From the NCBI RefSeq assembly GCF_988242995.1, contig NZ_OZ547043.1: a DNA stretch of 64,000 nucleotides; one strand, 5' to 3'. Shown one piece after another: positions 10,116-57,511 of the stretch. The translations under genes were made by a program, and so were the position numbers. Numbering within the stretch: the first letter of the stretch is position 1; each line of letters starts with the position of its first letter. The notes below the pieces were generated by a model, which worked only from the letters and a program-made list of their open reading frames with translations, was not told where the DNA came from and searched no databases.

Positions 10116-10459
10116 AGCGATTCTCCGTGTCTGTGTATTTTTGGTGTCTGCTACGGATCGCAGATTTATAAAGCACATTCAGCATGGCAAATATTTGCCG
10201 CTTCGTTGTTAAGATTAGTCCTGGTTGATAATTTTTATATTATAACACCATGATATTCATAGGGATTGTAATTTGGGCGATCCGATTAATATTGATACAA
10301 TATCTTTTGGATTATATATTCCCCGTTATCTATTGTGGGAATTTAATTTAAGTACAGAGATAATGTTTTCGCCGGATTTTATTCGGAATATCCTGCTTAT
10401 CCTCGTGCGGTTTCTCACGTAGTCTATAATTTCCTTTTTAAGCCCACAGGAGAGCAACA

Positions 10460-42705: not shown

Positions 42706-45357
42706 TTAGCGACAGATTGCTGTCTGCTGGTTCAGTAAGGTACCAGGAGAAACTTCAGGAAGCTTGTACTCGACAATACAGTTTGAGTTTTTATCTTTGC
42801 CCCATGAAACCTGTAATTTCCCTGACTGTGGAAGTCCAGTCAGATAAACCTGACCGTTTTCCGCGACAATGCTGCCATTTTTATTCTCACCATGTATGAC
42901 AATTGCACCGAATGGAACGCTCTTATTACCGTACTTCAACGTCATTAATACTTTCCCGCCGATTTGTGCATTAAATGTTGCTCTGGCAATAGCACCGTGA
43001 GTTGGGATGACAGTGACAACGGTTTCATCCAGTTCAACATTATCTGCAAGGGAATTCGCGTTAAGAGCGACACGATTTTCTCTATATTCTGTCGCAAATG
43101 GTAATATGGCATAGCCACGCCAGTCGGTATGAATTCCGGTCTGGTTCTCTATTTTGACATTATCAGCGCCAGGAGCCTTAACCAGAACCATTGTGTCGCC
43201 CAGCGGCTGACCAAAGGTGATGCCATCAGCATGAGCAATAATCCCACCACTCATTCCGTAATAAATCTGGCTGCTGTCACCACTCCGACTGTAACCGACA
43301 TTAGTATTACCGTAAGCTCCACGATAATTAAGAGAACTGTAACCACTGGTGGCAGACGATGTATTACCCCCGTGGGTGTTACCGACCTGAACGCTATAAT
43401 TCAGGTTATTATCCGGCAGCAGAGTGCCATAAACCCCCGATAGATTGGTCATACCGCCTTTCAAATCGTTTGACATACTGTAACTGGCGTTTGAATTACG
43501 AAATGCCGACTGACTGTCTGTACGCATCCAATGACTGAAGGGAACATTAAGCGTAAAAGCAAGTAAATGATCCCGATCGTTTTGCCATATATTATTGGAA
43601 TAGCTGTAATTCAGCGAAGTCGTAATATCACCAAACGGCACATTTAATCCAAATGATATTTGCTGGTCGCTGCGTGACGTGTTCCAGTAACTTTGGCGAC
43701 TGGCACTGAAAAATGTCGTACCGTAATTTCCAAGCTGCTGAGAGATGCTTATTTGTTCCTGACCACGCTTACTGTAGAACAGATTAAAATAATCAATAAA
43801 TTGTGTCTGCTCATTGCTGTCTCCGGTAGGAGGCTTGACGGTGTAACCACTCATTCGACTGTAGGCACTGTCGGATAAGTTATAAAAACCTTGCGTAGAA
43901 TAGCGATATCCTGCGACCTGGATATTGGTTCCCGTCTGGTAGAAGGATTTGCTGTAGACGGATTTAATCGATTGCCCGCTGTGACGGGTGCCATCTGCAA
44001 GTGTCGTATTGGCCTGCGTGATATCGAAAGAAAAGGCACCAAAAAGTCCTAAATCTTTACCAATACCAAGGTTGAAGGCTTGATAATCTTCTGCAATTTG
44101 CATTCCGCCATAAGGTGTCCAGTTTCCTTCCAGTCCATGCATCAAGCTACCTTGTATGAACTTGGGGGAGCTTTGCAGGTTATTTCCACTACGATATTCC
44201 CCCATGGCAAGCGCATAACGCGTATATCCAGCACGTTGGAGAACCGGAACAGACGAATAAGGAACATATAATGTCTGAATACTGCCGTCTGCCTCTTTTA
44301 TGGTTACTTGCAGATCACCACCATTGGCCGCAGAGTTGATATCATCAATAGTAAAAGGGCCGGGTGGGACAGTAGTCTGATAAACATCGTATCCATTCTG
44401 TTTTACACTCACTTGTGCGGTGCCGCGGGCAATACCATGAATCACCGGAGCGAAACCATGTTGGCTATCGGGCAACATCGCTTCTGTTGAATTTATTTTG
44501 AGGCCACGAAAGTTCACACTATCAAAAATATCGCCATCGGTATAACTATCACCTACCGTTAAGCGTGAGCGTAAGGGAATAATGTCACGTTCAGCCGACG
44601 TATTGATGTGCTGCCATTTATTGCTGTCAGATGAATTGCTACTCCCACTGTTATAACTCCACGTTGAGTTATCGCGCAGTCGCCAACTACCAATGTTGAT
44701 GCCACTCTGTAAATTCAAATATGCATAGTTGGATTTTCCTGCATTATGGTTACTACGATTATTAATAGAATTACCATTAAAACTATAGTTTAGAAGCCCA
44801 GCATTTATTCCTTCTTCCCACAGATCAGGAGAAACATAGCCGCGAGCCATTCTGCCAACATAAATTTGCGGAACGGAGAGTGACAAATGTTGCTGACCAA
44901 CATCAAACTCAGTTGATGCGTCGGCCAAACGATCCTGAAGTGGTGTGCATGCGCTGTTGTCCGGCACATGTTTTTCTGCCAAATGTTCTTTATTGTCTAA
45001 TAACGCTGATTTTTTTATGCCAAGACTGACAAGAAGATCTGTACTCAGGCATGGGATGAGATCTGCGTTATTATCATCTGCAATAAAAGTAATATCCCGA
45101 CTAGTCATAAATTCGTCGTTCAAATAAATGTCGACCCGATATGTACCAGGTGGTGCCTCGCGTCCCTTAGTAAAGGCGGATAAATCGACAGATTCAGCAA
45201 GATCATTGCTTAAAAACCGTGGATTAAAATAATACTCTGCGTCAACGGGAAATACCGCAGTTGCTAAGCCAAGGGCAATGGTAAGCCGTGCAAAGCGAGG
45301 CAGTAGTAACACCTGATGCATACGATATGCCTTAAATGCGGCACGAAAGGCTGTCAT
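42706..45357 (-). CDS. ydeT: Fimbrial outer-membrane usher, full length (FimD/PapC family)
   Basis: 883-aa uninterrupted ORF; as I recall ydeT is a truncated pseudogene in K-12, so here the usher appears intact. Confidence 0.8.
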   Translation of the reverse strand: MTAFRAAFKAYRMHQVLLLPRFARLTIALGLATAVFPVDAEYYFNPRFLSNDLAESVDLSAFTKGREAPPGTYRVDIYLNDEFMTSRDITFIADDNNADLIPCLSTDLLVSLGIKKSALLDNKEHLAEKHVPDNSACTPLQDRLADASTEFDVGQQHLSLSVPQIYVGRMARGYVSPDLWEEGINAGLLNYSFNGNSINNRSNHNAGKSNYAYLNLQSGINIGSWRLRDNSTWSYNSGSSNSSDSNKWQHINTSAERDIIPLRSRLTVGDSYTDGDIFDSVNFRGLKINSTEAMLPDSQHGFAPVIHGIARGTAQVSVKQNGYDVYQTTVPPGPFTIDDINSAANGGDLQVTIKEADGSIQTLYVPYSSVPVLQRAGYTRYALAMGEYRSGNNLQSSPKFIQGSLMHGLEGNWTPYGGMQIAEDYQAFNLGIGKDLGLFGAFSFDITQANTTLADGTRHSGQSIKSVYSKSFYQTGTNIQVAGYRYSTQGFYNLSDSAYSRMSGYTVKPPTGDSNEQTQFIDYFNLFYSKRGQEQISISQQLGNYGTTFFSASRQSYWNTSRSDQQISFGLNVPFGDITTSLNYSYSNNIWQNDRDHLLAFTLNVPFSHWMRTDSQSAFRNSNASYSMSNDLKGGMTNLSGVYGTLLPDNNLNYSVQVGNTHGGNTSSATSGYSSLNYRGAYGNTNVGYSRSGDSSQIYYGMSGGIIAHADGITFGQPLGDTMVLVKAPGADNVKIENQTGIHTDWRGYAILPFATEYRENRVALNANSLADNVELDETVVTVIPTHGAIARATFNAQIGGKVLMTLKYGNKSVPFGAIVIHGENKNGSIVAENGQVYLTGLPQSGKLQVSWGKDKNSNCIVEYKLPEVSPGTLLNQQTAICR

Positions 45358-45398
45358 TTTTAATTCCGATTGAGTTTATTATTAATTAGGTCACTGGC

Positions 45399-46118
45399 TT
45401 ATTGCATGGTTGCCTTAATACGCGGAGTTAATGCACCGTAATCATTGATCGTCTGAAAACTGATATCCCCGGTTGCAGCATGCGGGATATCCACCGATAC
45501 TTCACCTTTTGGCGGCACCATGGTGTTTGGGAGATTGCTATTTCCTGCTTTCATATTTGTTACGGTAATGAAGTAGGGCGTTGGATTAATAAGAGTGAGT
45601 TTGCTGCCGCTGCGACGAAACCGAAGCATTGCAGGCGCTTCTTCAGGTGCCATTGCCAGGTTCGTGGGGCGATAAAACATTTTTATGCGGCTAATAATTG
45701 CCAGCTGTAATGTATTCTCATTCTTCTGATCTTTTTCCATAGCAGGAATAGCTTTAACATTAACCCAGAACAGGCTTTCACGGTCGCCTGGTAACTGATG
45801 ATTAGTGGCGTTGATTATCCGCAGCGTATTCTCTTTTTTACCTTGCATGGAAAAAAGCGGTGGCGTAATGACAAACTGGGTGTCTTTTTGGTCACCCTCA
45901 TTTTCTATCCATGACTGAATGAGATAGACACTGGCAGGATCATTATTCGTGACAGGCAATAAAACCTGTTTCTGGTTTGCCGGATAAATTACCCGCGTCG
46001 CACCCAGTGCGACAGCTGCGTTGGCAACGGTGCTATGGCAAGCAAAGAGCAATAAAAGTAACACTGTCGCCATAAAGGAAATAGAGTAGGGGGTACGCCT
46101 AGTTTGCATCTGATGCAT
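45399..46118 (-). CDS. Periplasmic fimbrial chaperone (PapD/FimC family)
   Basis: 239 aa; signal peptide; chaperone-like N-terminal region and C-terminal domain. Confidence 0.8.
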   Translation of the reverse strand: MHQMQTRRTPYSISFMATVLLLLLFACHSTVANAAVALGATRVIYPANQKQVLLPVTNNDPASVYLIQSWIENEGDQKDTQFVITPPLFSMQGKKENTLRIINATNHQLPGDRESLFWVNVKAIPAMEKDQKNENTLQLAIISRIKMFYRPTNLAMAPEEAPAMLRFRRSGSKLTLINPTPYFITVTNMKAGNSNLPNTMVPPKGEVSVDIPHAATGDISFQTINDYGALTPRIKATMQ

Positions 46119-46471
46119 TCTCCATGTGTTAAGAGGATAAGCGGGGAAACCGTTACATCAGACAATCGGTAAATGTTGCTAATACATTGGCGACTCGCCG
46201 GGTTTCCAGACTTAATGCGTTTGTAATAAATGTTGGTTCTCTTTTAATAGGAAAACATTGCTACAAAGTAAATATTTTAAATAACAGTAAGTTTAACTAC
46301 TGTTGTTTATTGATCGTTTAGATATTATGTGATTTTTTCATGCCGCTCCAAAACACAAACTATTCCTCATTAATAATGAGATGAACATTGGTGAATTGCT
46401 CGGGTGTGCGTAGCCATGCCACACACACCCTGTTTCAATTTCAGATGACGTATAGCCACCTTAAGATTGAA

Positions 46472-47035
46472 TTATAGATATTGAACTTTGAAGGTCGCAT
46501 CAGCGTTTGCAGTACCAGCTACTGACTGCCCGAGAGCAATATAACGAGCCTGGAACGGCAGTATATTCGTGCCATCAATCAAGTCAGTTTTAGCGCTAAA
46601 AGTGGCACCATCAAGTATTAATACCTCACCCGTACGGTCCAAAATTTGAATACCGACATTTTGGGCAGAGCCTGCCGCTGAACTCTGCAGCGCTAACGTA
46701 TCGTCATTACTGGTGACAGTAGTACCCAGGAATGCAACAGCTGCATTACTGGAAACATTGGTATCACAATCATTCAGCTTGATATTGAAGCCAACGGCGG
46801 AGCTGAGGTCACCCGCTTTAGCCAGACGAGAAGAACGGACCTGACCCAGCTCAACCGTTTGGTTCATTGATTCTGAATCAATCGCACAAGCGGCATTTAC
46901 CACTTCACCTTTAAAATGAATAACACCGCCATTAACAGTGGTCGTTACTGATTCATCACCCTCGGCTGCGCTTACCGCAGCAGACGACATCGCCAACACA
47001 GAAACGACAATCATACCGACATGTTTGAGTTTCAT
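46472..47035 (-). CDS. Major fimbrial subunit (type 1 / F9-like pilin)
   Basis: Track ORF 46472-47083 with internal start [23 protein letters not shown]; Cys pair and C-terminal ...TFKVQYL typical of FimA-like pilins. Confidence 0.8.
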
Positions 47036-47468
47036 AATTCTCCAGAATTTATATTTAAGTAGCTGAATAAAGAAAGTTAACAATTAAGTCATTCTGTTAT
47101 TGCTTATAAAACAAGAATCATTCTTGATGGGATATTGCCCTGAGAATATAGTTTCCAGGGTTATTACATTTCACGAAGAACGATAATATCTTTAAATTAC
47201 AAGGACACCTAATCACAACAAGTTTATTGCAGCACTTGTTGTAGAGGGTATTTGCAAAGACATTTTATGTCGCTAAATAACATTACGATTTCATTATGCA
47301 TGTTATTTATAAACAGCGACTAAACAGAATATTATTGCGAACAAGGGAAGTGTCAGGAAAGGTCAAGAGCGGCCAATGGTTTATATGGCTATAAAACATT
47401 AGCTATGGTTAATGTTTGACTGGTGTAACTAACACGGAATTGCTCTAAACAGATAAGTGCAGGGTTTA

Positions 47469-47723
47469 TTAAAGCTGACCGACAGACTTTCTTAACCCGG
47501 TAATATCTCTCTTAGGTGACTCTCCAAACATCCGCGAATATTCCCGACTGAAATGGGATAAGCTTTCGTAACCGACAGCATAGGCTGCAGTGGTGACATC
47601 GTAATGTTCATTCAGCATCAGTCGCCTGGCTTCATTGAGGCGTAGCCATTTCTGATACCGGAGTGGACTCATTCCCGCAAGCTGTCTGAAGTGTTGATGG
47701 AAAGTGGGGGTGTTCATTTGCAC
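47469..47723 (-). pseudogene. yneL: Remnant of an AraC-family regulator (C-terminal HTH only)
   Basis: 84-aa ORF is only the AraC C-terminal HTH domain (LRYQKWLRLNEARRLM...GYESLSHFSREYSRMFGESP); no N-terminal domain ORF upstream. Confidence 0.65.
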
Positions 47724-48003
47724 GCGGTTTGCCAGCCTGACTCTTCAACGCAGGGAAGATGCGGCAAACGGCAAACCTGCATACCAGCCAGCCTATATCC
47801 GGTATGCACAGGCCAATCATGAAAGAGGAGAGGCTTTATGTTCTGGAACCCTGAAGTAATAACGACGACTGGAAAATCGCTTCGCATCACTCAAATTCCA
47901 TTTAACTATTCTGGGTTTGAGGGATATACATAATTGACTTCAGCACCAGAAACAGCATAACAAACTGTTTTAAATGGATATTAATCAAATGGCGATTCAA
48001 ACT

Positions 48004-48038
48004 CACAGTTATGAACTCAGTTTTGGTTCATAACTGTG
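48004..48038. repeat. Perfect 13-bp inverted repeat with 9-bp spacer
   Basis: cacagttatgaac-tcagttttg-gttcataactgtg; a related palindromic 10-mer gttcatgaac lies about 40 nt further on. Confidence 0.8.
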
Positions 48039-48137
48039 TTAAACGCTGTCCATAAATCACTCGATGTTACGCTTATTGGTTCATGAACTGTTCGTTCTAA
48101 TGTTGTGATGTGCGTCAGGTTTTAGTGTTCGGTAATG

Positions 48138-48941
48138 TTACCTTTTACTCGATGATCGATTGTTTAGCACCTCTCCCACAACCGGAGCAGCGGTAAATGC
48201 GTTTGGCCAGCCAGCATAGAAGGCGGCCTGGGTAACGATCTCACCAGCTTCCTCAACAGAAAGTCCATTATCCATTGCTCTGTTAAGGTGATAGCCAATC
48301 TGCGCGCTCTGTCCGGATGCGATTAAGGCGCTGACCGTAATCAGGCTTCTGTCGCGGGGTTTCAGCGCGGGTCTTTGCCAGAGATCCAGGAAGAGTGGAT
48401 CAGCAGTGAATTTAACCAGGCCTGGAGATATTGGGCCAACATTTTTTTCCACTGTTTCTGAACGCTGCTTTTCTGCTTCCTGATTGAGAGGAAGCAGGTC
48501 CGGAGAAGCGTCAGGAAGTGCATCTGCCGTGACGCCACGAGTTTCAAATACTGCTTTGGTCACGCTGACGGCTGACATTGCATTTGGCCAACCTGAGTAG
48601 AACGCCAGATGGGTAATGATTTCTGATAATTCCGCTGGCGTCACGCCGCTATCGAGAGCGACGTCAATATAGTGCTTAAGCTGGGCAGGCTGGTTGCGGG
48701 CAATCAGCATGGCGACGGTCACCACACTACGATCCCTCGGTGAGAGGGCGTCGCGTGTCCACAGATCTTCAGTAATAGCTTCGCGACCAAAGCGCGCGAG
48801 AGCCGGTGAGACGGAACGAATATCAGCTTCCGAAATCGCTGACGGTTCTATTTTCATCATAGCTTTACCTCTTGTTTCCTCAGCATTGGCAAAATCAGAA
48901 ATAACAAGCGACATAGCCGCTGCTGCAAGTACGCTTTTCAT
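48138..48941 (-). CDS. Tandem carboxymuconolactone decarboxylase-like (AhpD-like) protein with predicted signal peptide
   Basis: 267 aa; two repeated modules each with a ...ITHLAFYSGWPNA... type segment (CMD/AhpD fold); N-terminus MKSVLAAAAMSLVISDFANA looks like a Sec signal. Confidence 0.7.
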   Translation of the reverse strand: MKSVLAAAAMSLVISDFANAEETRGKAMMKIEPSAISEADIRSVSPALARFGREAITEDLWTRDALSPRDRSVVTVAMLIARNQPAQLKHYIDVALDSGVTPAELSEIITHLAFYSGWPNAMSAVSVTKAVFETRGVTADALPDASPDLLPLNQEAEKQRSETVEKNVGPISPGLVKFTADPLFLDLWQRPALKPRDRSLITVSALIASGQSAQIGYHLNRAMDNGLSVEEAGEIVTQAAFYAGWPNAFTAAPVVGEVLNNRSSSKR

Positions 48942-48956
48942 GTTAATCCTTACTGG

Positions 48957-49682
48957 TCAACGTTGCTGCTCCTGTTTGATTCCGCCTTTGTTACGAAGAA
49001 ATACCGGTTTTACCGGGATTGCGTCCTTCCTGGCGCTCATATGCGCCGTTTGCCTGAGGTAATCCAGGAAGTGCGGCGTTTGTCGGTGCAGTTGATAATC
49101 CTCCTCACTGGCGTAAATCTCATAGAAATACCAGCGTTTTGGAGTCTCTGAATCTGTACCGGCATACATGGCTAACACGCCTTTCTCTACTTTGAGCGAC
49201 TCGACCATTTCAGGAAGGACGATGTTTCTAAATTCGCTCTGAAATTCAGGCTTTACTTCGACGATCACCAGATTATTGATAGTTCGTTCATTCGGTATGA
49301 TGTGTTTGTCGCCCAGAAACTGTGGCTCCAGGGTAATTTTCTTCTTCCTGTCAATAATGTCAGGTGCACGAGCAGCGAATGCTTTGTATGGGGCGGCATT
49401 GAGATGTTTGCGATAAGCACGCTCATTTTCATAGAGTTCGAACATGAATGCCTTATGTGGATTGTCGCTGTGGTGCAGGGCGTACATCGCCAGCGTACCT
49501 ACTTCATGATCAACCGAAGCGGAAATCGTCTGTCTGGCTACGTCTGCAAAGTCGTTGTCCCGATCGGGTCTGATGCCGAGCTCGAAGATATTCATCTCCG
49601 GCTTATTCGGCGCGTCCGGTTTTGTTGCAAAGACAGGGCTGCTTATTAGCATGCAAATTAAAAGCATAAAAGTCTTTTTCAC
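48957..49682 (-). CDS. Tandem ABM-type (antibiotic biosynthesis monooxygenase-like) protein with predicted signal peptide
   Basis: 241 aa; two halves each with LAMYA...FYEIY / FELYENE... features of the ferredoxin-like ABM fold; N-terminus MKKTFMLLICMLISSPVFA. Confidence 0.6.
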   Translation of the reverse strand: MKKTFMLLICMLISSPVFATKPDAPNKPEMNIFELGIRPDRDNDFADVARQTISASVDHEVGTLAMYALHHSDNPHKAFMFELYENERAYRKHLNAAPYKAFAARAPDIIDRKKKITLEPQFLGDKHIIPNERTINNLVIVEVKPEFQSEFRNIVLPEMVESLKVEKGVLAMYAGTDSETPKRWYFYEIYASEEDYQLHRQTPHFLDYLRQTAHMSARKDAIPVKPVFLRNKGGIKQEQQR

Positions 49683-49797
49683 GATGATCTTTTTACTGAC
49701 ATTACTGTTTAAGACGTTCGATCAACTGGTGCTGGTAGGAACGTAACCGACCGCTACTGGCGCTCTCAAAGACTAGAGGAGGAAAAGTGAATAAGGG

Positions 49798-50817
49798 CTA
49801 TCGCGTCCATACCTGCTTAACATCTTTCGTTTGCGGCGTATTTTGCGCCATGATCCCCGTCAGAACATGCGGCTGGTAGGTTTCTTCCAGAAACTGAATT
49901 TCCTCCGGACTTAGTTGAAGATTTACTGCGTTTACCGCGCCATCGACATGAGCTTTTTTTGTAGCCCCTACGACAGGTGATGTGACTTTTGTCAGCAGCC
50001 AAGCGAGAGATATTTCCGTCATTGACACCAGATGGCGTTCGGCCAGTTCGGCTACACGCTCAATAATGCTGCGATCCTGTTCAGCCGTGCTGTCATATTT
50101 TCCACGCGCATAGTCATCCTCTGTGGCTCGCCGCGTATAGCCTTCTTTACGAGAGAGGCGGCCGCTGGCCAGCGCGCTATAGGGGGTCATTGCGATATTA
50201 TCCTCAGTGCACAGGCCGAAGAGCTCCCGTTCATCTTCGCGCATAATTAGATTGTAGTGGCTCTGTACGGAAACAAAGGGCGTCAGCCCTTCGCGTTCAG
50301 CAAGGGCGTTCGCCTTCGCCAGCTGCCAGGCATAGCAGTTTGAAATACCAACAGCTCGTACTTTGCCAGCAGTAACAGCGGTATGTAACGCTTCAAGCAC
50401 GTCGATAATGGGCGTGTTGTAATCCCAGATGTGGTAGATGTAGAGGTCGATATAGTCCATCCCCAGATTCTTCAGGCTCTGGTCAAGGGATTGAGCGATT
50501 GCCTCTTTTCCGCTGATCCCTCCGGCAATTTGTGCGGGGGTTCGCGGCAGAAACTTGGTGGCCAGGACGATATCATCGCGTTTCGCCATCTCCCGTAATG
50601 CCCGGCCAACGTATCGCTCACTGGAGCCATTCTGGTAGGCTATAGCGGTATCGTAAAAGTTGATGCCCTTTTCAAGGCCATAGCGAATGATGTCGCGGCT
50701 TGCTGTTTCGTCCAGCGTCCAGCTATGCTGACCCGTCGACGGATCGCCAAACCCCATGCATCCCATGCAGATGCGGGAAACAAGTAAGTCACTTTTACCG
50801 AGCCGGGTATACTGCAT
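49798..50817 (-). CDS. Aldo/keto reductase
   Basis: 339 aa; AKR motifs (GINFYDTAIAY, catalytic Tyr/Lys context). Confidence 0.8.
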   Translation of the reverse strand: MQYTRLGKSDLLVSRICMGCMGFGDPSTGQHSWTLDETASRDIIRYGLEKGINFYDTAIAYQNGSSERYVGRALREMAKRDDIVLATKFLPRTPAQIAGGISGKEAIAQSLDQSLKNLGMDYIDLYIYHIWDYNTPIIDVLEALHTAVTAGKVRAVGISNCYAWQLAKANALAEREGLTPFVSVQSHYNLIMREDERELFGLCTEDNIAMTPYSALASGRLSRKEGYTRRATEDDYARGKYDSTAEQDRSIIERVAELAERHLVSMTEISLAWLLTKVTSPVVGATKKAHVDGAVNAVNLQLSPEEIQFLEETYQPHVLTGIMAQNTPQTKDVKQVWTR

Positions 50818-50819
50818 TG

Positions 50820-51392
50820 TTATTCTCCCTCTGGATTATTCACGACGGAATTGAGCAGTTCGACAAGCCTTGAAGCGTGTTCCCGGGCAAGCGTTTTTTG
50901 CTGCGCGATTTTGTCGGCATCCCGGTCGGCATAGCTGATACCGCAGGTATAAACCGGCGCCAGCAGCTCAAGATTGCACAGCCTTGCCGTGGTTTCGAAC
51001 GGAATAAGATACTCTTCAATGGTATTGCCAAAGAAACTGTCGACGGTATAGAGCTCCTCTGGCGCTCCCGTTGTAAAGGAGAGGATCAGCTTTTTACCGC
51101 CCAGTTTCGCCGTTGAGCCATGCGCGAAGCCGTGAACAAAGACCTCGTCCAGCCATTTTTTCATTAATCCTGGCAGCCCATACCAGGAAAAAGGGAACTG
51201 CCAGACAATCACATCGGCCCTGAGCAGGCTTTTCTGCTCCGCCGCGATGTTGAATTTGCCATCCGGATAGAGCCTGTCCAGACGACGAATCTCAACATCG
51301 GGAAGGGCGGTCTCCACTTCATCAAGAATAGTGGCATTGGCGACGGAATGGGTAAGCTCAGGATGACCTGAAATAACAAGGATATTTTTCAT
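50820..51392 (-). CDS. Flavodoxin-like NAD(P)H:quinone oxidoreductase family protein
   Basis: 190 aa; MKNILVISGHPE... N-terminus and WQFPFSWYGLPGLMKKWLDEV typical of NAD(P)H dehydrogenase (quinone) family; 3-nt gap to the downstream AKR gene. Confidence 0.75.
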   Translation of the reverse strand: MKNILVISGHPELTHSVANATILDEVETALPDVEIRRLDRLYPDGKFNIAAEQKSLLRADVIVWQFPFSWYGLPGLMKKWLDEVFVHGFAHGSTAKLGGKKLILSFTTGAPEELYTVDSFFGNTIEEYLIPFETTARLCNLELLAPVYTCGISYADRDADKIAQQKTLAREHASRLVELLNSVVNNPEGE

Positions 51393-51542
51393 TTCAATCA
51401 GTTAAACATCTTTGGTGAATATTAAATCCAGTATAGAGTGACAACATTATTTTTTTAGAGCAGTAAAGGCTCATTCACTTTTAGGCAAAAACTAATAATT
51501 GTCGGCTGATCACAATGTGCTCAGTCATCATGAAACGGTGAA

Positions 51543-52220
51543 CTAAACCGTGATGCCCAGTAAACGTTCTGCATTGCGAAACGCGATGGCCTCTTTTTCA
51601 GCCTTGTTGACGGGCAGACTGTCTATAAAGGTTTTTACACCGTCCAGGGGTCTGATAGGGATAACCGACGGAGAACAGGATCCTTTCAGCACCCATTAAC
51701 GCGTAGATAAACTGGAAGTGCGGCAGTGTTAGCATATGACGGGGTAACGTAAACGTGTTCCTGGAAGGTTCTCGTTAGCGTGCGTGACAGACCCGTTGCA
51801 GCCAGTGCTAGGCTGTCATCAAGACGCTGGAGCCAGAAGGGTAACATCTCCCCCCAGTGGCCACTGATTACCTGCAGGTTGGGATATTTATCAAATGCGC
51901 CCGATAACATCAGCCGCAACAAATGGATCCCCGCTTCGTGATGCCAGCCCCAGGCAAACATAGAAAGCCTGGCGTTGACCTCTGCGCTGAAGCCCGTGAA
52001 GTAGGCCTGCTGTACGCTTTTAAGCGGTAACCCGGGATGAAGATAGAGTGGCACATTCAGTTTATTAAAGCGGGAAAGCAGGGAGTCGGTCAGGATTATG
52101 ACCATCAGCGACGGTTTTCCCCCTGTCGCCAAGGAAAGGTGCCTGCTCAAGCGCAACAGGCATACACGCGCGCCCTAACTCGCTGTCGAGATAATTTTCT
52201 TCGAGGCAAATGATTTTCAT
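51543..52220 (-). pseudogene. Frameshifted amidohydrolase-2 (TIM-barrel metal-dependent hydrolase) gene
   Basis: Coding potential is split over three frames: MKIICLEENYLDSELG... (from ATG at 52220), a 156-aa middle ORF (51686-52156) containing ISGHWGEMLPFW, and a C-terminal piece ...AEKEAIAFRNAERLLGITV* ending at 51543. Confidence 0.55.
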
Positions 52221-52322
52221 ATTCTCACCATTCATACAAAGCAGTAAAAGTGATACAGATTAGAATCACCCGGAACAGCCCGTTCGTGTGTGTCATTCAT
52301 GACAGTCTGTTCCGGACGGGCT

Positions 52323-53270
52323 TTACACCATCGGTTTTTCCCAGGCGCCTCGTGTATCCACTCTGGTCTCTGCGGCGAGTTGTTCCAGCAGGATGATTTC
52401 CTCATCGCGTAACTGGATGTCTGAAGCGCAGGCGGCGTCCAGAACGTGATGGACTTTAGTCGCACCAACGAGGGGAAGGGTACCTTTCACAATAGCCCAT
52501 GCGATGGATATCTGTGCCACGCTGGCATTCCTTTCGGCTCCCATTTTTTTCATGGCGGCGGTTAGTCTTTCTATCTGCGGCAGTACGGCGTTATAACTTT
52601 CGGCCCGGCCACTCCCGGCAGGCATGGGATGATTTGAATCATAACGACCACTGAGCGCGCCTTGCTCCAGGACCATGTAAGCAAAGAACGTGATGTTATT
52701 TTGTCGGCAATAATCAAGGATCCCGGCCTCTTCAGAAGCGCGATAGAGCAGGCTGTAGTGATTTTGTACTGCACTGAGGGAATAACCGGAAGCGTTAAGG
52801 ATTTCATTGGCGCGTCTGATTTGTGCCAGATTGTGGTTGGAAACACCTACGCGTTTTACCTTACCGCTTTGTAAAAGTGGGATCAGTCCTGGCGTCCATT
52901 TTTCGACGTCGAGGGGATTATGGATCCAGTAGATATCAATCGCGTCCACGCCCAGGCGCCCAAGGCTGGCCTCAAGCATATCGCTGACAGGCTGCGCAGA
53001 CTGCTTGTCCGCAATCTGCGGCGTGAATTTGGTGGATAAAATTATGTTCTCGCGGGGAAACTGACGGACTAATGCTCCCAGCGCAGTCTCGGAACTCCCC
53101 ATACCATATACTGCTGCGGTATCCCAGAGATTGAGGCCCTTACTCATGGCCGCAGTGAACACTTCTGCCATCTGAGTATCAGAAAGATGATTACCAAAGA
53201 CGGTGTCGCCGCCGGCAAAGCCTGTGCCCCAGGACCATGTACCTAGTGCGACTGGAGGTAGTGTTTTCAT
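52323..53270 (-). CDS. Aldo/keto reductase
   Basis: 315 aa; AKR motifs (LWDTAAVYG, IDIYWIHNP). Confidence 0.8.
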   Translation of the reverse strand: MKTLPPVALGTWSWGTGFAGGDTVFGNHLSDTQMAEVFTAAMSKGLNLWDTAAVYGMGSSETALGALVRQFPRENIILSTKFTPQIADKQSAQPVSDMLEASLGRLGVDAIDIYWIHNPLDVEKWTPGLIPLLQSGKVKRVGVSNHNLAQIRRANEILNASGYSLSAVQNHYSLLYRASEEAGILDYCRQNNITFFAYMVLEQGALSGRYDSNHPMPAGSGRAESYNAVLPQIERLTAAMKKMGAERNASVAQISIAWAIVKGTLPLVGATKVHHVLDAACASDIQLRDEEIILLEQLAAETRVDTRGAWEKPMV

Positions 53271-53343
53271 ATTCAGCTCCTGAAAAAAGGCCGGATCGTG
53301 GCTGACTTAAACCGGCCAAGTAAGGTGAGTAACGATGAATTAA

Positions 53344-54033
53344 TTAAGCTGTCCGGCGGAGTGCATTTAACAGCGCCACACCAACCCCATGTGCTGAAGC
53401 GGGATTCTGCCCCGTGATAAGGCGATCGTCGGTAACCACGTTTTCAGACCAGTTTGGAGCTTCATGATAAAGCGCACCATGCTCGCGAAGTGCGGTTTCA
53501 AGCAGGAAGGGAACCACATCTGTTGTGTGAACTTCTTCCTCTTCCTTGTTGGTAAAGGCCGCCACATTTTTCCCTTTTATCAGGTATTCGCCGCTACTGA
53601 GTTTTGCGTCAACCAATGCCGCAGGCCCGTGGCAGACGGCTGAGACAATCCCATCACTTTCATACACTTCGCGGATAATACGCTGGGCATCCTGATTATC
53701 ACGGAAATCCCACATGGTCCCATGACCACCTGCAAAGAAAACTGCGCTGTAATCGGCACCTTTCAGCTCGGATAACGCAGGTGTTGTTGCCAGGCGCTGC
53801 TGAAAATCGGTTTCGTTCCAGTACCAGGCGTTAACAGGGTCGCTGAGGTCAAATCCATCCACCGGTGGCTGCCCCCCGCGAATACTGGCTATTGTTGTTT
53901 TTATTCCGGCATCTTCCAGTACTTTCAGCGGATGAGTCAGCTCGGCCAGGAAAAAACCGGTTGGTACACCGGATGCGCCTTTAATCGGATGGCTGGAAAC
54001 GACACATAGCACTGGTTTATATGCAGGTTTCAT
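53344..54033 (-). CDS. DJ-1/PfpI (class I glutamine amidotransferase-like) family protein
   Basis: Roughly 229 aa; nucleophile-elbow-like AVCHGP; start uncertain (track ORF extends to 54045). Confidence 0.75.
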   Translation of the reverse strand: MKPAYKPVLCVVSSHPIKGASGVPTGFFLAELTHPLKVLEDAGIKTTIASIRGGQPPVDGFDLSDPVNAWYWNETDFQQRLATTPALSELKGADYSAVFFAGGHGTMWDFRDNQDAQRIIREVYESDGIVSAVCHGPAALVDAKLSSGEYLIKGKNVAAFTNKEEEEVHTTDVVPFLLETALREHGALYHEAPNWSENVVTDDRLITGQNPASAHGVGVALLNALRRTA

Positions 54034-54041
54034 ATCGGTCC

Positions 54042-54353
54042 TCACTCTTTATTTTTAAATTCATCGGCGAAGAGATTTTCCCAGTTAATAAAGGAGCCAA
54101 GCGGTATACACTCGAAGCTTAGTAAGCCTGCTTTTGCCAACGGGAATTCGGCCATAACGTTCATCGCTTCATCGACAGAGTCACATTCAAGAAAAATAGC
54201 GACGCCAGGTCTGTCCTGACGGAAGTAGATGTCGCGGATGAAGCCTGATTTATACAATCCCCAGGCGTGCAGCGCTTCAGCGTTGAGGTGCGGAGCATAT
54301 TTCTCCAGCGATGCTCCAGGGGCAGGGATATCCAGACATAAAATTCGCATCAT
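54042..54353 (-). CDS. Small alpha+beta-barrel protein, possibly muconolactone-isomerase-like
   Basis: 103-aa ORF first in the operon; weak pattern similarity to muconolactone isomerase and other dimeric alpha/beta-barrel proteins; assignment tentative. Confidence 0.45.
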   Translation of the reverse strand: MMRILCLDIPAPGASLEKYAPHLNAEALHAWGLYKSGFIRDIYFRQDRPGVAIFLECDSVDEAMNVMAEFPLAKAGLLSFECIPLGSFINWENLFADEFKNKE

Positions 54354-54489
54354 AGTCTCCTGAACTCAGGTCGTTGTAGAAAGAGACTAAAGTATAAGAG
54401 GCGTATTTCAGGAAGATTAGAGGGTCATTGACTTAAGCATTTTTAGACTGTACTTAATAATCAGGCGAGAATTGCTTTAGGAAAACATT

Positions 54490-55389
54490 ATGAATAACGC
54501 TCTTTATAACCAGATTCGCATCTTCCAGAGCATTGCGCGGGAGGGCAATATTTCGGCAGCCGCAAGGAAACTGGAAATTACGCCTCCCTCCGTCAGCAAT
54601 GCACTAAAGCTGCTGGAAGAGTATATCGGCCATCCGCTTTTTGTGCGTACGACCCGCCGTATAGAGCTGACGGAAACCGGTCAATTATTGCTGGAACAGA
54701 CCGCTGCGGCGGTGGAGTCGCTGGAAAACTCACTTGAAAGCATTCGCGACCAGCATCAGGAGCCCTCTGGGATGGTGCGAATTACGCTCTCGCGTTTTGC
54801 CTACCTGTTAATTCTTAAGCCTGCGATGGCAGAATTCTGTCAGCAATATCCGGGTATACAGTTAGAAATTTCGGTCTACGACGGTACCGTGAATATCATC
54901 AAAGAGCGTTTTGATCTGGGGATCCGTTTTGGCGATATTCTTGAGGGAGGGGTGGTGGCCCGACCGTTAATGAAACCGTTTCGTGAAGGATTATATGCAT
55001 CCTCAGCGTATCTCTCCCGACATGGAACGCCTGAAGTGCCGGCAGATCTCTGTCATCACCAGCTGATTGGTTACCGTTTTATCACCAACAACCGCATCCT
55101 TCCGCTGCTCCTGAACGATCGCGGTGAGCAGTTGACCGTTGAGATGCCGGGGCAGTTAATCAGCAACGATATTGACGTTATGGCAGACGGGATCCGTAAC
55201 GGGCTGGGAATTGGGCGCTTGTTTGAGCCTGTCTGGCAGTTACAGCCGGACAGGGAGCGCTTTATTCCGGTGATGGAGAGCTACTGGAAAACCTACCCGC
55301 CAGTGTATCTCTATTACCCCAAAAACGCGGGTAAAACGAAAAGAGTGAAGGCCCTGATTGATTTTCTGATATCCACTACGGGGCGATAA
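54490..55389 (+). CDS. LysR-family transcriptional regulator
   Basis: 299 aa; N-terminal HTH (ISAAARKLEITPPSVSNALKLLEE) and LysR substrate-binding domain; divergent from the redox operon. Confidence 0.85.
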   Translation: MNNALYNQIRIFQSIAREGNISAAARKLEITPPSVSNALKLLEEYIGHPLFVRTTRRIELTETGQLLLEQTAAAVESLENSLESIRDQHQEPSGMVRITLSRFAYLLILKPAMAEFCQQYPGIQLEISVYDGTVNIIKERFDLGIRFGDILEGGVVARPLMKPFREGLYASSAYLSRHGTPEVPADLCHHQLIGYRFITNNRILPLLLNDRGEQLTVEMPGQLISNDIDVMADGIRNGLGIGRLFEPVWQLQPDRERFIPVMESYWKTYPPVYLYYPKNAGKTKRVKALIDFLISTTGR

Positions 55390-55787
55390 AGACGATAACG
55401 CCTCGTTCAGTATGGAGATGCATCGAATGGCATTGTGAGTTTTTTTTCACAGATGGGCGTAATCGTCAGTGGATTTTACATACGAGGATAGCGCCCACAT
55501 ACTGACATCATTAATTAACGTTGGGTGAGGTTTACCGGGGGGGAGGGGAACGCGAACCAGGAGATGGAGGTGGCCAATCTGGTACGAACCGCCGCGTAGC
55601 TTGCACGGCAAGAGCTGCTGACTGATTCATCAGTTAAGCTACTGAAAGAGCGGAACACATGAACTTAAGAACAAACCACCACATTTAACATAATATACAT
55701 TATGCGCACCAGCATAAACCAAGGAAGAATCCAGTCGTTGGCGGCCATAATTGTCCTGCTCATTAACAACGACCAAAACCCCATATC

Positions 55788-57110
55788 TTACTTAATACCG
55801 TATTCTCGGCTTAACCGGCCGTGCAACCTCAACACATTGGTTTCAACTGCCGTCACCACGTTCTCCGGAAAATCTGTCGGTAACGAAGTCTTCACGTTAT
55901 CCAGTGCTGCCGGAATCATTCTGGCAAAGTAATTCAGGATTTCATGCATCTGCACTTCCGGGAATCTCAGCACCTTTGCTGTCGCCAGAAAATGTCGCGG
56001 ATAAATTTTATCGATTGCCGTTTTTTTGCCTTTGGATGCGTTAAGCCCCATTGCCAGTTTGAGATCGCTGATGTGTATTCCTGCGCCACCCAATACCGGA
56101 AATGCTGAAATGATGTCGTAAAATGGCGTGAGTCGATAACTGCCGCCAGCCTGAATAAATACGGAGAAGTTTTTTGCATGGCCATCCGTTGCGCCAATCA
56201 ACCACTGGAACACCTGAAACTTCATAAAATCATAGCGATCTTTCAGCGCCTCGCTGGACCCCATCAAAAAAGCCATGATCCGCGCGATGCCTGGGCCTCC
56301 ATCTGATTCATATTTCACCGATGAAGGTAAACCGAATGTCTGACACATATCCTCCTGTGGCAAGCGAAGTAAAACCGTTCGCTCAGCATTCCAACGCCTG
56401 TCAAAACGTTCGACCGCTAACGCGCGCACATTTCCCGCTTTAATGATTTCTGCGTCCGGCACATTCAACCCAAGTTCTTTCGCCAGCAGCAGACAGTAAT
56501 ACTCATTATCAACGCTTTGGCTGAGATCGAGCGTCGCATTGGGCTGCCTGATTTCGCCAATCGGTAATTTAATGATGTGCGTCGTCGGCGTTATTCCTTT
56601 CGGAATGCACCAGTCATTGCCTATTCTGAGCAGCGCTGTCTTCTCCTGCGCGCCAGCAACCGAGATGCGAAAGTCATTTTCTTCTCTAATCATGCCCAGA
56701 GGGATATCTGCTTTATAAGCCGTTAATACTTCTTCAAGCCTGGCTTCAGTGAGCTGTTCCCATGCCATTATCGGGCGCGTTATGGTTTCATTTTCGGGTA
56801 ATAACGTTACGGCACCAACGCTATCTCGCCCTATTTCTGACAATAAATCAAACGGTTGTCTGGATTTAGCATGATAACGTTTAACGATCCGGTCACGTAC
56901 AATCGGGCTATCGGGTAGCAGGTTATCGAAGAAGTTAAATACAGCATCAGAGGTGATATTCCCCCTCTGCAATGGCAGCGAAAGTGATAACGGTCTGGCA
57001 TAACGGTTGGCTAACCACTCCGGTGCATACTTAAAGGTGTGCGCGCCATTGGCTAACTTCGTTAACTCGCCTACCCGCTGGTTGTTCATCCAAGTGACAA
57101 GTTTAGGCAT
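55788..57110 (-). CDS. hipA: Serine/threonine kinase toxin HipA
   Basis: Track ORF 55788-57167 with start MPKLVTWMNNQRVGELTKLANGAHTFKYAPEWLA (440 aa); start overlaps the hipB stop by 1 nt. Confidence 0.93.
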   Translation of the reverse strand: MPKLVTWMNNQRVGELTKLANGAHTFKYAPEWLANRYARPLSLSLPLQRGNITSDAVFNFFDNLLPDSPIVRDRIVKRYHAKSRQPFDLLSEIGRDSVGAVTLLPENETITRPIMAWEQLTEARLEEVLTAYKADIPLGMIREENDFRISVAGAQEKTALLRIGNDWCIPKGITPTTHIIKLPIGEIRQPNATLDLSQSVDNEYYCLLLAKELGLNVPDAEIIKAGNVRALAVERFDRRWNAERTVLLRLPQEDMCQTFGLPSSVKYESDGGPGIARIMAFLMGSSEALKDRYDFMKFQVFQWLIGATDGHAKNFSVFIQAGGSYRLTPFYDIISAFPVLGGAGIHISDLKLAMGLNASKGKKTAIDKIYPRHFLATAKVLRFPEVQMHEILNYFARMIPAALDNVKTSLPTDFPENVVTAVETNVLRLHGRLSREYGIK

Positions 57111-57376
57111 TACCACTCCAGATCTTGCTGTTCTGTTGATTCTGGCGAGGCATTTTTCGTGTCGCATAGCGTCATTGAGAGTTCAAGCGACTGTAAAATC
57201 TTAAAAAATGTCGTCAGCGTGGTATTGTCAGGGTTGTTTTCGAAATTGGAAATTGTCGCCTGCTTAATGCCGATTTTTTTCGCCAGCTCGCTCTGCGTCC
57301 AGCCATTTTGCTGACGAACCAGTTTCATTGCATTCGCTAATTGCGTTGGGCTATAGATCTTCTGAAAGCTCATCAT
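57110..57376 (-). CDS. hipB: HipB antitoxin (Xre-type HTH repressor)
   Basis: Track ORF 57110-57394 with start MMSFQKIYSPTQLANAMKLVRQQNGWTQSELAKKIG (88 aa). Confidence 0.93.
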   Translation of the reverse strand: MMSFQKIYSPTQLANAMKLVRQQNGWTQSELAKKIGIKQATISNFENNPDNTTLTTFFKILQSLELSMTLCDTKNASPESTEQQDLEW

Positions 57377-57397
57377 GTCATACGTCCACAGCAAATT

Positions 57398-57511
57398 TAT
57401 CCGCTCAAGGGGATATTATCAGTTTTATCCTTTAGTGAGGATAAAGTCAATCTGGAAACACATCTTATCCGCTCTACGGGATAAACGCTGCGATATCCGC
57501 GATCGCGGATA
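57398..57511 (-). promoter_or_regulatory. hipBA promoter/operator region with four HipB operators (TATCC-N8-GGATA)
   Basis: Four copies of TATCC-N8-GGATA at 57398-57415, 57426-57443, 57466-57483 and 57494-57511, all upstream of the hipB ATG. Confidence 0.85.

Follow-up and report, generated by a model that had tools for sequence, protein, structure and literature searches.

The 84-codon open reading frame (ORF) that separates the F9 fimbrial operon from a redox gene cluster in Escherichia coli is, judged from its sequence and with a probability of about 0.88, a dead gene fragment: 88 codons left from the gene of a 304-residue AraC-family regulator. Neither the original promoter and start nor the ligand/dimerisation domain would be present in the fragment, which would also be short of the first DNA-binding helices, and its codons most likely yield no functional protein and drift. 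It is the E. coli pseudogene known in K-12 as yneL, already annotated and nothing new in itself. The truncation of the AraC gene is a separate, older event that predates the presence-absence polymorphism of the neighboring redox island, and the redox cluster would have been inserted later, at the outer edge of dif, through the activity of a family of site-specific integrative elements. It would be a mistake to list the remnant among the regulators of the F9 fimbriae or the redox genes. Together with the relics of two other genes, it is instead a landmark, which records that E. coli once had the dif-proximal module of Enterobacter and Klebsiella and fixes the exact point at which accessory islands enter beside dif. 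Positions below refer to the window, by which we mean the whole 64,000-nucleotide stretch that was analyzed. The features on which the argument turns are as follows.

46472 to 47035, minus strand: major-subunit gene of the F9 fimbrial operon, downstream neighbor of the remnant (annotation)
47469 to 47723, minus strand: remnant ORF, 84 codons (ORF list, Pfam, alignment to intact orthologues, RefSeq pseudogene call)
47469 to 47736, minus strand: full extent of AraC homology, residues about 216/217 to 304 plus the stop codon (blastn and tblastn)
47737 to 47797, plus strand: alpha/beta hydrolase relic, codons 220 to 239 of 359 (blastn, tblastn)
47818 to 47889, plus strand: two-piece relic of a DUF2255 gene, from its 5' end (blastn, global alignment)
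47900 to 47906, no strand: ATTTAAC, which bounds the redox island on the left and repeats the outer 7 bp of the dif XerD arm (junctions in 12 E. coli loci)
47900 to 48137, no strand: END module, the conserved terminal part of the island family (alignment of 28 distinct ends)
48138 to 55416, no strand: redox island cargo (gene calls of RefSeq in a 99% identical strain; CMD and ABM assigned by Pfam; identity to L008 from Enterobacter)
55618 to 55682, no strand: START end of the island, directly next to the dif XerD arm (homology to the START of a plasmid element; metagenome contig L040)
55683 to 55710, minus strand: chromosomal dif, GGTGCGCATAATGTATATTATGTTAAAT, 28 of 28 positions (pattern search and scan; sequence in PMC3025954)

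Identity of the remnant and its intact relatives

Profile searches support the assignment to the AraC family that a preliminary description had made from the letters and ORFs. The ORF matches Pfam HTH_18 with an E value of 1.6e-22 over profile positions 6 to 76 of 80 and HTH_AraC with an E value of 4.9e-9, the second HTH_AraC unit being complete; the NCBIfam matches, to many AraC-family regulators, were all partial, confined to the C terminus, and far under the model cut-offs. An initial protein search gave only matches shorter than 150 aa. They proved to be C-terminal pieces of AraC_N-type proteins, originating in split genes or on short contigs, and a natural family of HTH-only proteins of ∼140 aa, which had been considered, was dropped. 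A genome scan recovered intact 304-aa orthologues from Enterobacter mori, E. vonholyi, Enterobacter sp. MGH 24, and Klebsiella michiganensis, and a further intact 304-aa copy lies on metagenome scaffold L025. These proteins carry an AraC_N domain at residues 31 to 181 (E value of 8.6e-45 in the E. mori orthologue), HTH_AraC at 204 to 244, and HTH_18 at 217 to 291.

Alignment to the full-length orthologues, which the preliminary description had proposed as a check, defined the remnant as residues 217 to 304. In a tblastn search these residues of the E. mori protein fell at window positions 47735 to 47472 with 88.6% identity (E value of 6e-48), and the rest of the 64-kb window held no further match at an E value below 1. 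By blastn, the full homology region corresponds to positions 10388 to 10120 of L008 at 87% identity. The ORF itself begins with a GTG codon, covers residues 221 to 304, and is preceded immediately by an in-frame stop. We sought the AraC_N domain (PF06719) in every frame of the window by tblastn, and by Pfam on the upstream ORFs, and it was absent; the two upstream ORFs, of 58 and 62 aa in the two other frames, matched no Pfam family. An alternative start or frame for the N terminus is ruled out by three-frame translation and tblastn, neither of which showed N-terminal AraC sequence, and the full-length AraC ORF that would have overturned the idea of a remnant was thus not found in the 64-kb window.

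The description had also held that the C-terminal HTH domain remains. A C-terminal remnant is indeed present, but the domain is not whole. The first HTH unit occupies residues 204 to 244 of the intact protein, the homology in the window begins at 217 and the ORF at 221, and the initial 13 to 17 residues of this unit, its first helices, are lost; in the alignment, the recognition helix of this unit is conserved, as is the second HTH. The remnant is therefore a derivative of the AraC/XylS family and not a complete example of its ∼100-aa C-terminal DNA-binding domain with two helix-turn-helix units. Of the intact gene, 29% of the coding sequence and none of the control region survive in the window. 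Consistent with this, the RefSeq annotation (PGAP) of a 99.9% identical strain labels the gene as a pseudogene with a missing N terminus, and every strain that we inspected carries the label "incomplete; missing N-terminus," to which "frameshifted" is added in K-12-type strains.

The window region is from Escherichia coli, and the neighbors of the remnant identify it with yneL (b1506) of K-12, which has the F9 operon on one side and dif and hipA on the other. In the K-12 derivative ER2683 the order is ydeT usher fragment, HTH pseudogene, dif, and hipA. According to a 2025 preprint, K-12 has dif within the 114 bp that separate yneL from hipA (bioRxiv 10.1101/2025.09.02.673814), and a 2022 survey lists yneL as a pseudogene (PMC9308461). 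The two copies share the same C-terminal AraC HTH content and 96% nucleotide identity across 210 bp. The window copy is 58 nucleotides longer at its 5' end and is without the 1-bp frameshift of K-12; it also keeps the hydrolase relic, which a different sequence replaces in the K-12 allele. K-12 further differs in having no redox island and in having lost 3.3 kb of the F9 operon.

On the other side, the remnant lies on the same strand as the F9 operon (ydeQRS, usher, chaperone, and major subunit) and 430 bp upstream of its major-subunit gene. Homology to the Enterobacter and Klebsiella AraC loci ends no more than ∼20 bp from the remnant stop codon, the blastn matches terminating at 47450 to 47468. 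The F9 operon is complete in the window (43933 to 47213). K-12 lacks the usher N terminus, the chaperone, and the major subunit, and the usher gene there is the pseudogene ydeT because of this 3.3-kb loss.

In the intact loci, the AraC gene is divergent from a 359-aa alpha/beta hydrolase gene, which is followed by a gene assigned to DUF2255 by Pfam. This three-gene module is intact in Enterobacter and Klebsiella, where it too lies on the XerD-arm side of dif; dif adjoins it in E. vonholyi, Enterobacter sp. MGH 24, K. pneumoniae, and locus L024. The Enterobacter and Klebsiella regulators (PF06719 plus HTH_18) are 88 to 93% identical to the remnant protein over residues 221 to 304 and share its side of dif. 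They differ from it in having their full 304-aa length and an intact divergent promoter region, both missing from the window, and in having as intact neighbors the hydrolase and DUF2255 genes that are relics in the window. We found no intact module at the yneL locus in any E. coli genome of the collection.

Other copies of the AraC gene were seen elsewhere. E. coli M18 (L016, 6733 to 10177) carries an intact, xenologous 304-aa copy (WP_000622442.1) with an alpha/beta hydrolase gene on an argW-intS island; this island copy, present in some E. coli strains, is 89% identical to the remnant at the nucleotide level. In K. pneumoniae ATCC 13883 (L014, 9556 to 9582 and 10010 to 10258), the same AraC gene has been truncated independently to an 82-codon remnant, which lies 425 bp from dif and whose break is displaced by ∼20 bp from the one in E. 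coli; the XerC arm in this strain adjoins an aldo-keto reductase gene that is itself truncated. E. vonholyi (L011, 12757 to 12870) has a second fragment of the AraC 3' end, ∼110 bp long and ∼1.8 kb downstream of its intact gene.

Deletions, decay, and possible function of the remnant

Between the remnant and the next gene, which encodes a protein of the carboxymuconolactone decarboxylase (CMD) family and has its stop codon at 48138, lie 414 bp. The preliminary description had this as about 400 bp of noncoding sequence. The length is right, but the stretch is not featureless: it contains the hydrolase relic, the DUF2255 relic, and the 238-bp terminal END module of the neighboring island. The hydrolase relic was detected by tblastn (47737 to 47796; E value of 3e-5) and by blastn, which matched 47738 to 47797 to L008 8604 to 8547, and also to L010, L011, and L006, at 84 to 93% identity. 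The two pieces of the DUF2255 relic correspond by blastn to L008 8087 to 8045 and 8026 to 8001. From 47900 on, the window matches the region of L008 downstream of the CMD gene.

Comparison with L008 gives three deletions, of about 1,520, 460, and 408 bp, which together account for the apparently noncoding interval. The first created the junction 47736/47737, where AraC codon 217 abuts codon 220 of the divergent hydrolase gene; it took AraC codons 1 to 216 and hydrolase codons 1 to 219 together with the divergent promoter region. The loss of codons 1 to 216 and of the divergent intergenic region is seen likewise against L010 to L013 and L025. We therefore agree that the locus has a deletion junction, one with ∼1,520 bp lost relative to L008, but it is not a junction of cluster insertion. 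The ancestor of the remnant was thus a 304-aa regulator, with AraC_N and two HTH units, divergent from alpha/beta hydrolase and DUF2255 genes; in the E. coli lineage, a 1.5-kb deletion truncated the AraC gene and two more cut the hydrolase and DUF2255 genes to relics of 60 and 70 bp.

The hydrolase relics of different E. coli lineages are complementary. The window keeps L008 8547 to 8604, UTI89 (L017, 7459 to 7559) keeps L008 8447 to 8544, and the two lineages share the hydrolase breakpoint to within ∼2 bp, a point that could mark an insertion since lost.

The remnant has decayed in the manner of a truncated pseudogene: its start and promoter are gone, constraint on it is relaxed, and independent disabling lesions occur in the population. 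Pairwise dN/dS was 0.46 to 0.64 among ten E. coli alleles, against 0.09 to 0.11 for the same codons in seven intact orthologues; nonsynonymous and synonymous changes stood at 18:9 in the E. coli copies and 20:44 in the intact orthologues (Fisher p = 0.0024). The within-E. coli dN/dS is below 1, and its 27 changes fit either neutrality or weak constraint. Position 255 illustrates the difference, being an invariant leucine in the intact proteins and Leu, Pro, Thr, or Gln in E. coli. In the commonest E. coli allele, the K-12 type, a 1-bp deletion is present, the first 58 nucleotides are replaced by other sequence, and the start lies 58 nucleotides later; frameshifted protein variants exist (P0017 and P0018). 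Phylogroup B2 strains such as UTI89 have no remnant, retaining only a 100-bp hydrolase relic, and carry unrelated DNA in its place beside a perfect dif.

One could propose that the 84-aa ORF is a working MarA/SoxS-like mini-regulator of the F9 promoter or of the redox cluster, a proposal that we regard as improbable. It would account for an ORF that is unbroken in the lineage of the window and in many strains, for the preserved second HTH and first recognition helix and the high protein identity to intact orthologues, and for the position of the ORF upstream of the F9 major-subunit gene and in the same direction. A microarray signal for yneL under many conditions in K-12 (PMC9308461) would also suit it; from that signal the DNA is probably transcribed, perhaps by read-through. 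Such a protein would, however, have to bind DNA without residues 204 to 216/220 of its first HTH unit, and it would have to be made from an ORF whose native promoter and start have been deleted. No promoter-like site was found upstream of the ORF start, and no clear ribosome-binding site was read at the GTG codon. Changes fall at columns that are invariant in intact proteins, the frameshift is in the most common allele, and B2 strains with intact F9 operons do without the remnant altogether. A study of F9 described the 5' flank of the operon as variable, with "hypothetical transcriptional regulators," and found no evidence that these putative upstream regulators control f9 (PMC3966885).

Still less probable is that the DNA, rather than a protein, has been kept for a role in cis, as spacing or flank for dif function or as insulation of the F9 promoter. 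Some part of a 1.2-kb query centered on the remnant was matched in 5,156 of 5,426 complete E. coli genomes, and in island-free strains the region lies within 1 kb of dif. Against such a role, the B2 strains have their unrelated DNA beside an intact dif, the 5' part of the region differs in K-12-type strains, and E. coli copies of the remnant diverge by 5 to 7% at the nucleotide level. Moreover, in the only dif-dependent assay that we found, a 525-bp deletion that included yneL had no effect and deletion of dif did (bioRxiv 10.1101/2025.09.02.673814). The reading of the remnant as a dead fragment is the one that we retain.

In some strains, small deletions between short AGGCTGG repeats (about 47730 to 47790 in the window) fuse the remnant to an upstream nonhomologous ORF. 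The predicted fusion proteins are 120 to 139 aa long (P0004, P0001, and P0002); the 120-aa form, P0004, results from a 57-bp deletion and was found on 87 contigs.

The redox island and its entry point at dif

At its right-hand border the island meets ATTTAACATAATATACATTATGCGCACC, the reverse complement of E. coli dif at 28 of 28 positions and the only dif-like site in the window. The window therefore spans the replication terminus; GC skew was uninformative at this scale. The heptamer ATTTAAC is present at both ends of the 7.8-kb cluster and only once, as part of dif, in island-free strains. In a sensitive alignment, K-12 and O157:H7 sequences run to 47906 and resume at 55683, with seven overlapping bases. 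The cargo encodes CMD, an ABM monooxygenase, an aldo-keto reductase, an NAD(P)H oxidoreductase, a disrupted amidohydrolase, a second aldo-keto reductase, a DJ-1/PfpI-type amidotransferase, a hypothetical protein, and a LysR regulator, and it is 92 to 94% identical to L008. That the cluster is accessory, as had been proposed, is borne out by its distribution: at least 80% of the 1.2-kb junction query, including the start of the redox cluster, was covered in 459 of the 5,426 complete genomes.

An obvious explanation for the truncation would be that the redox cluster, by its insertion or by imprecise excision, broke the AraC gene, so that the break is itself the island junction. The remnant adjoins the cluster, the cluster is accessory, and a genuine insertion junction lies 164 bp away. 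Even so, we consider this explanation very unlikely. The preliminary description had placed the break exactly where the cluster begins, but the border is the ATTTAAC at 47900 to 47906 and not position 47736, the other end is at dif (55683 to 55710), and the break is on the far side of the relics of two other genes. When junctions were compared among strains, island-free O157:H7, APEC O78, ApSLC23, and K-12 proved to carry the same AraC break and the relics, making the break common to strains with and without the island. Conversely, Enterobacter loci L024 and L025 have the same island at the same junction beside intact hydrolase and DUF2255 genes, and the AraC frame there is full length, uninterrupted in L025 and with one premature stop in L024 and L008. 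Synonymous divergence from L008 also suggests different histories, at 0.15 to 0.23 for five island genes (the LysR gene left out) and 0.37 ± 0.06 for the remnant. Island-free ApSLC23 falls inside the island-bearing haplotype group, an argument that recombination weakens. The gap in synonymous divergence and the placement of ApSLC23 both fit an island that arrived site-specifically after the adjacent relics had decayed. With the AraC module adjoining dif in Enterobacter, Klebsiella, and Escherichia alike, island and AraC gene would be neighbors in both genera without any causal link.

Several observations were made at the borders of the island and of dif. Relative to the Enterobacter island, the window has a 1.7-kb insertion (49723 to 51431) with genes for an aldo-keto reductase (339 aa) and an NAD(P)H oxidoreductase (190 aa), and a 354-bp deletion at about 52087 that disrupts the amidohydrolase gene. 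The stretch 55620 to 55682 was at one point taken for an ancestral dif flank; blastn-short gave no significance to this, and the stretch was later explained as the conserved START end. A 27-bp sequence at 55683 was considered as the terminal repeat of an insertion sequence, an ISNCY remnant following it in strain MLI106K3, and was ruled out as such, being dif.

On the XerC-arm side of dif the window has hipA and hipB (about 55788 to 57400). In MLI106K3 (L001, 20683 to 23479), where dif matches at 27 of 28 positions, a 2.8-kb segment just past the XerC arm holds an ISNCY transposase remnant and a SIR2-family gene; it is absent from the window. Klebsiella loci L004 to L006 have a gene for a 467-aa transposase-like protein at the position of this segment, which suggests a second kind of element that targets the other (XerC) edge of dif. 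In UTI89 (L017, 9114 to 14448), the XerC-arm side of dif carries genes of a filamentous phage (zonular occludens toxin family, secretin, and DUF2523), probably a dif-integrated prophage, and on the other side an SDR oxidoreductase gene stands in place of the AraC remnant.

A candidate family of integrative elements at Xer sites

The ends of the redox island recur on other elements. Its END (…CCTCAAACCCAGAATA|GTTAAAT) is also present in Enterobacter L024 and L025, with a dif that is perfect or matches at 26 of 28 positions 8.7 to 10.7 kb away. A metagenome scan found this end in 34 contigs, where GTTAAAT was joined directly to at least 17 different flanks, among them K-12-type, B2-type, and E. 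vonholyi-type sequences that all abut dif in island-free genomes; a scan of viral contigs for the same end gave no matches. The redox cargo, at 92 to 94% identity, occurs with several distinct flank types. The terminal 240 to 315 bp (∼73% identity) are all that further contigs, 62 E. coli genomes, and 50 plasmids have in common with the island, and unrelated cargo follows, including TIGR02391/Ymh, Hachiman, and restriction genes. The END module proper, 238 bp long, is 72 to 77% identical on elements with unrelated cargo and on the 50 plasmids. It contains a perfect 13-nucleotide inverted repeat (48004 to 48016 and 48026 to 48038) and a dif-like stretch split by 15 bp, GAAGTCAATTA-TGTATA-T[CCCTCAAACCCAGAA]TA-GTTAAAT, and it matched nothing in Rfam.

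Plasmids supply both states of the target. An element-free Enterobacter MOBF plasmid has the Xer site GGTGCGCTTAA-TGGTAT-TTATGTTAAAT as a clean empty site. On the occupied plasmid, one junction reads …CCGGC|ATTTAAC|TATTCTGGG… and the other consists of the Xer site followed by the conserved START. Empty and occupied sites are thus seen in E. coli chromosomes and in Enterobacter MOBF plasmids, and the family combines site-specific integration and short direct repeats with an identifiable empty site. In the loci with END or START sequences (L024, L040, and L060 to L066), insertion is in every case at the outer GTTAAAT, either that of dif or that of a Xer site on a plasmid. We also considered whether island-free strains arose by microhomology deletion between the two ATTTAAC copies; plausible for E. 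coli alone, this is unlikely given the 17 or more flanks and the clean empty site on the plasmid.

The START of the window island has a homologue on an Enterobacter plasmid, where the corresponding START stands ahead of the integrase genes of a complete element. Next to START, this 22-kb element encodes proteins of 507, 556, 845, and 167 aa. Their integrase signal is weak and consists of the PGAP name of the 507-aa protein, site-specific integrase, and a match of part of the 556-aa protein to the NCBIfam model integrase_1 (NF041502; E value of 2.6e-24); the four proteins had no match in Pfam, and sequence searches of the PDB with the three large ones gave no meaningful match. Complete elements are also known from E. 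coli VTB96935v and plasmid p1_045001. The window island keeps both element ends and no recombinase genes, and it looks like a recombinase-less member of an integrative element family that would insert there in Xer sites. Three contigs have a second four-gene set, or as much of one as the contig holds, at 33 to 40% identity and ∼180 bp after GTTAAAT, showing tandem stacking. The circular junction predicted for the family has the general form ...CAAACCCAGAATA-GTTAAAT-(A/G)TGGTGG..., and in one predicted instance, CAAACCCA-GAATA-GTTAAAT-ATGG-TGGGTTTG, an 8-bp inverted repeat flanks a 16-bp spacer, a layout as would be expected of the core site of a tyrosine recombinase.

Two classes of known elements resemble the family. 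GInts/Tn6571 (PMC5385486) and the strand-biased circularizing elements, or SEs (PMC10214605), share with it site-specific insertion, a short flanking direct repeat, variable cargo, and residence in chromosomes and plasmids. In its layout, the four-gene module next to one end of the complete relatives of the island resembles the module of GInts and SEs, which consists of three tyrosine-recombinase-like proteins and a small protein. The window island differs from them in being without any recombinase genes.

The second class, IMEX (CTX-phi, TLC-phi, the gonococcal island, and EludIMEX/EcloIMEX), has in common with the island integration at Xer sites, unlike ends of which one is a functional dif and the other a degenerate dif-like sequence, and tandem pile-up on one side of dif. 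The far junction of the island, however, matches only 7 of 11 bases of the XerD arm and has no properly spaced XerC arm (4 of 11 bases), leaving a single dif-like site in the window, and the complete relatives of the island, unlike IMEX, encode integrase-like proteins of their own. We therefore rejected the canonical Xer-mediated mechanism of IMEX, which calls for two Xer-binding sites and a central crossover. The window lacks a second Xer site, and the junctions do not fit an exchange in the central region, since the degenerate arm would then stand beside the chromosomal XerC arm, which is not seen; the observed junctions need an exchange within or at GTTAAAT. Identity with EcloIMEX/EludIMEX was set aside on account of the insertion locus, EcloIMEX elements being inserted between setB and yeiP and not at the chromosomal dif (PMC12198106).

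From these comparisons we tentatively outline a wider scheme, with the odds somewhat against it as a whole. The family would target the outer GTTAAAT of the XerD arm in Xer sites, whether the chromosomal dif or a multimer-resolution site on a plasmid; its complete members would carry a GInt/SE-like four-gene recombinase module together with defense or metabolic cargo, and one insertion after another would stack on the XerD side of dif. Members without recombinases, including the redox island of the window, have both ends and may be moved in trans. The AraC-hydrolase-DUF2255 module, and hence yneL, may be eroded cargo of an older layer. We found no description of dif-edge targeting by GInt/SE-type elements in the accessible literature. 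If the targeting of the dif edge is borne out, it would provide a testable attachment site for poorly understood multi-recombinase elements, beside a site needed for chromosome dimer resolution. It would also explain why the hipA-ydeT interval is a defense-island hotspot, listed as number 20 and occupied in 62 of 783 genomes by Hochhauser et al. (PMC10121019).
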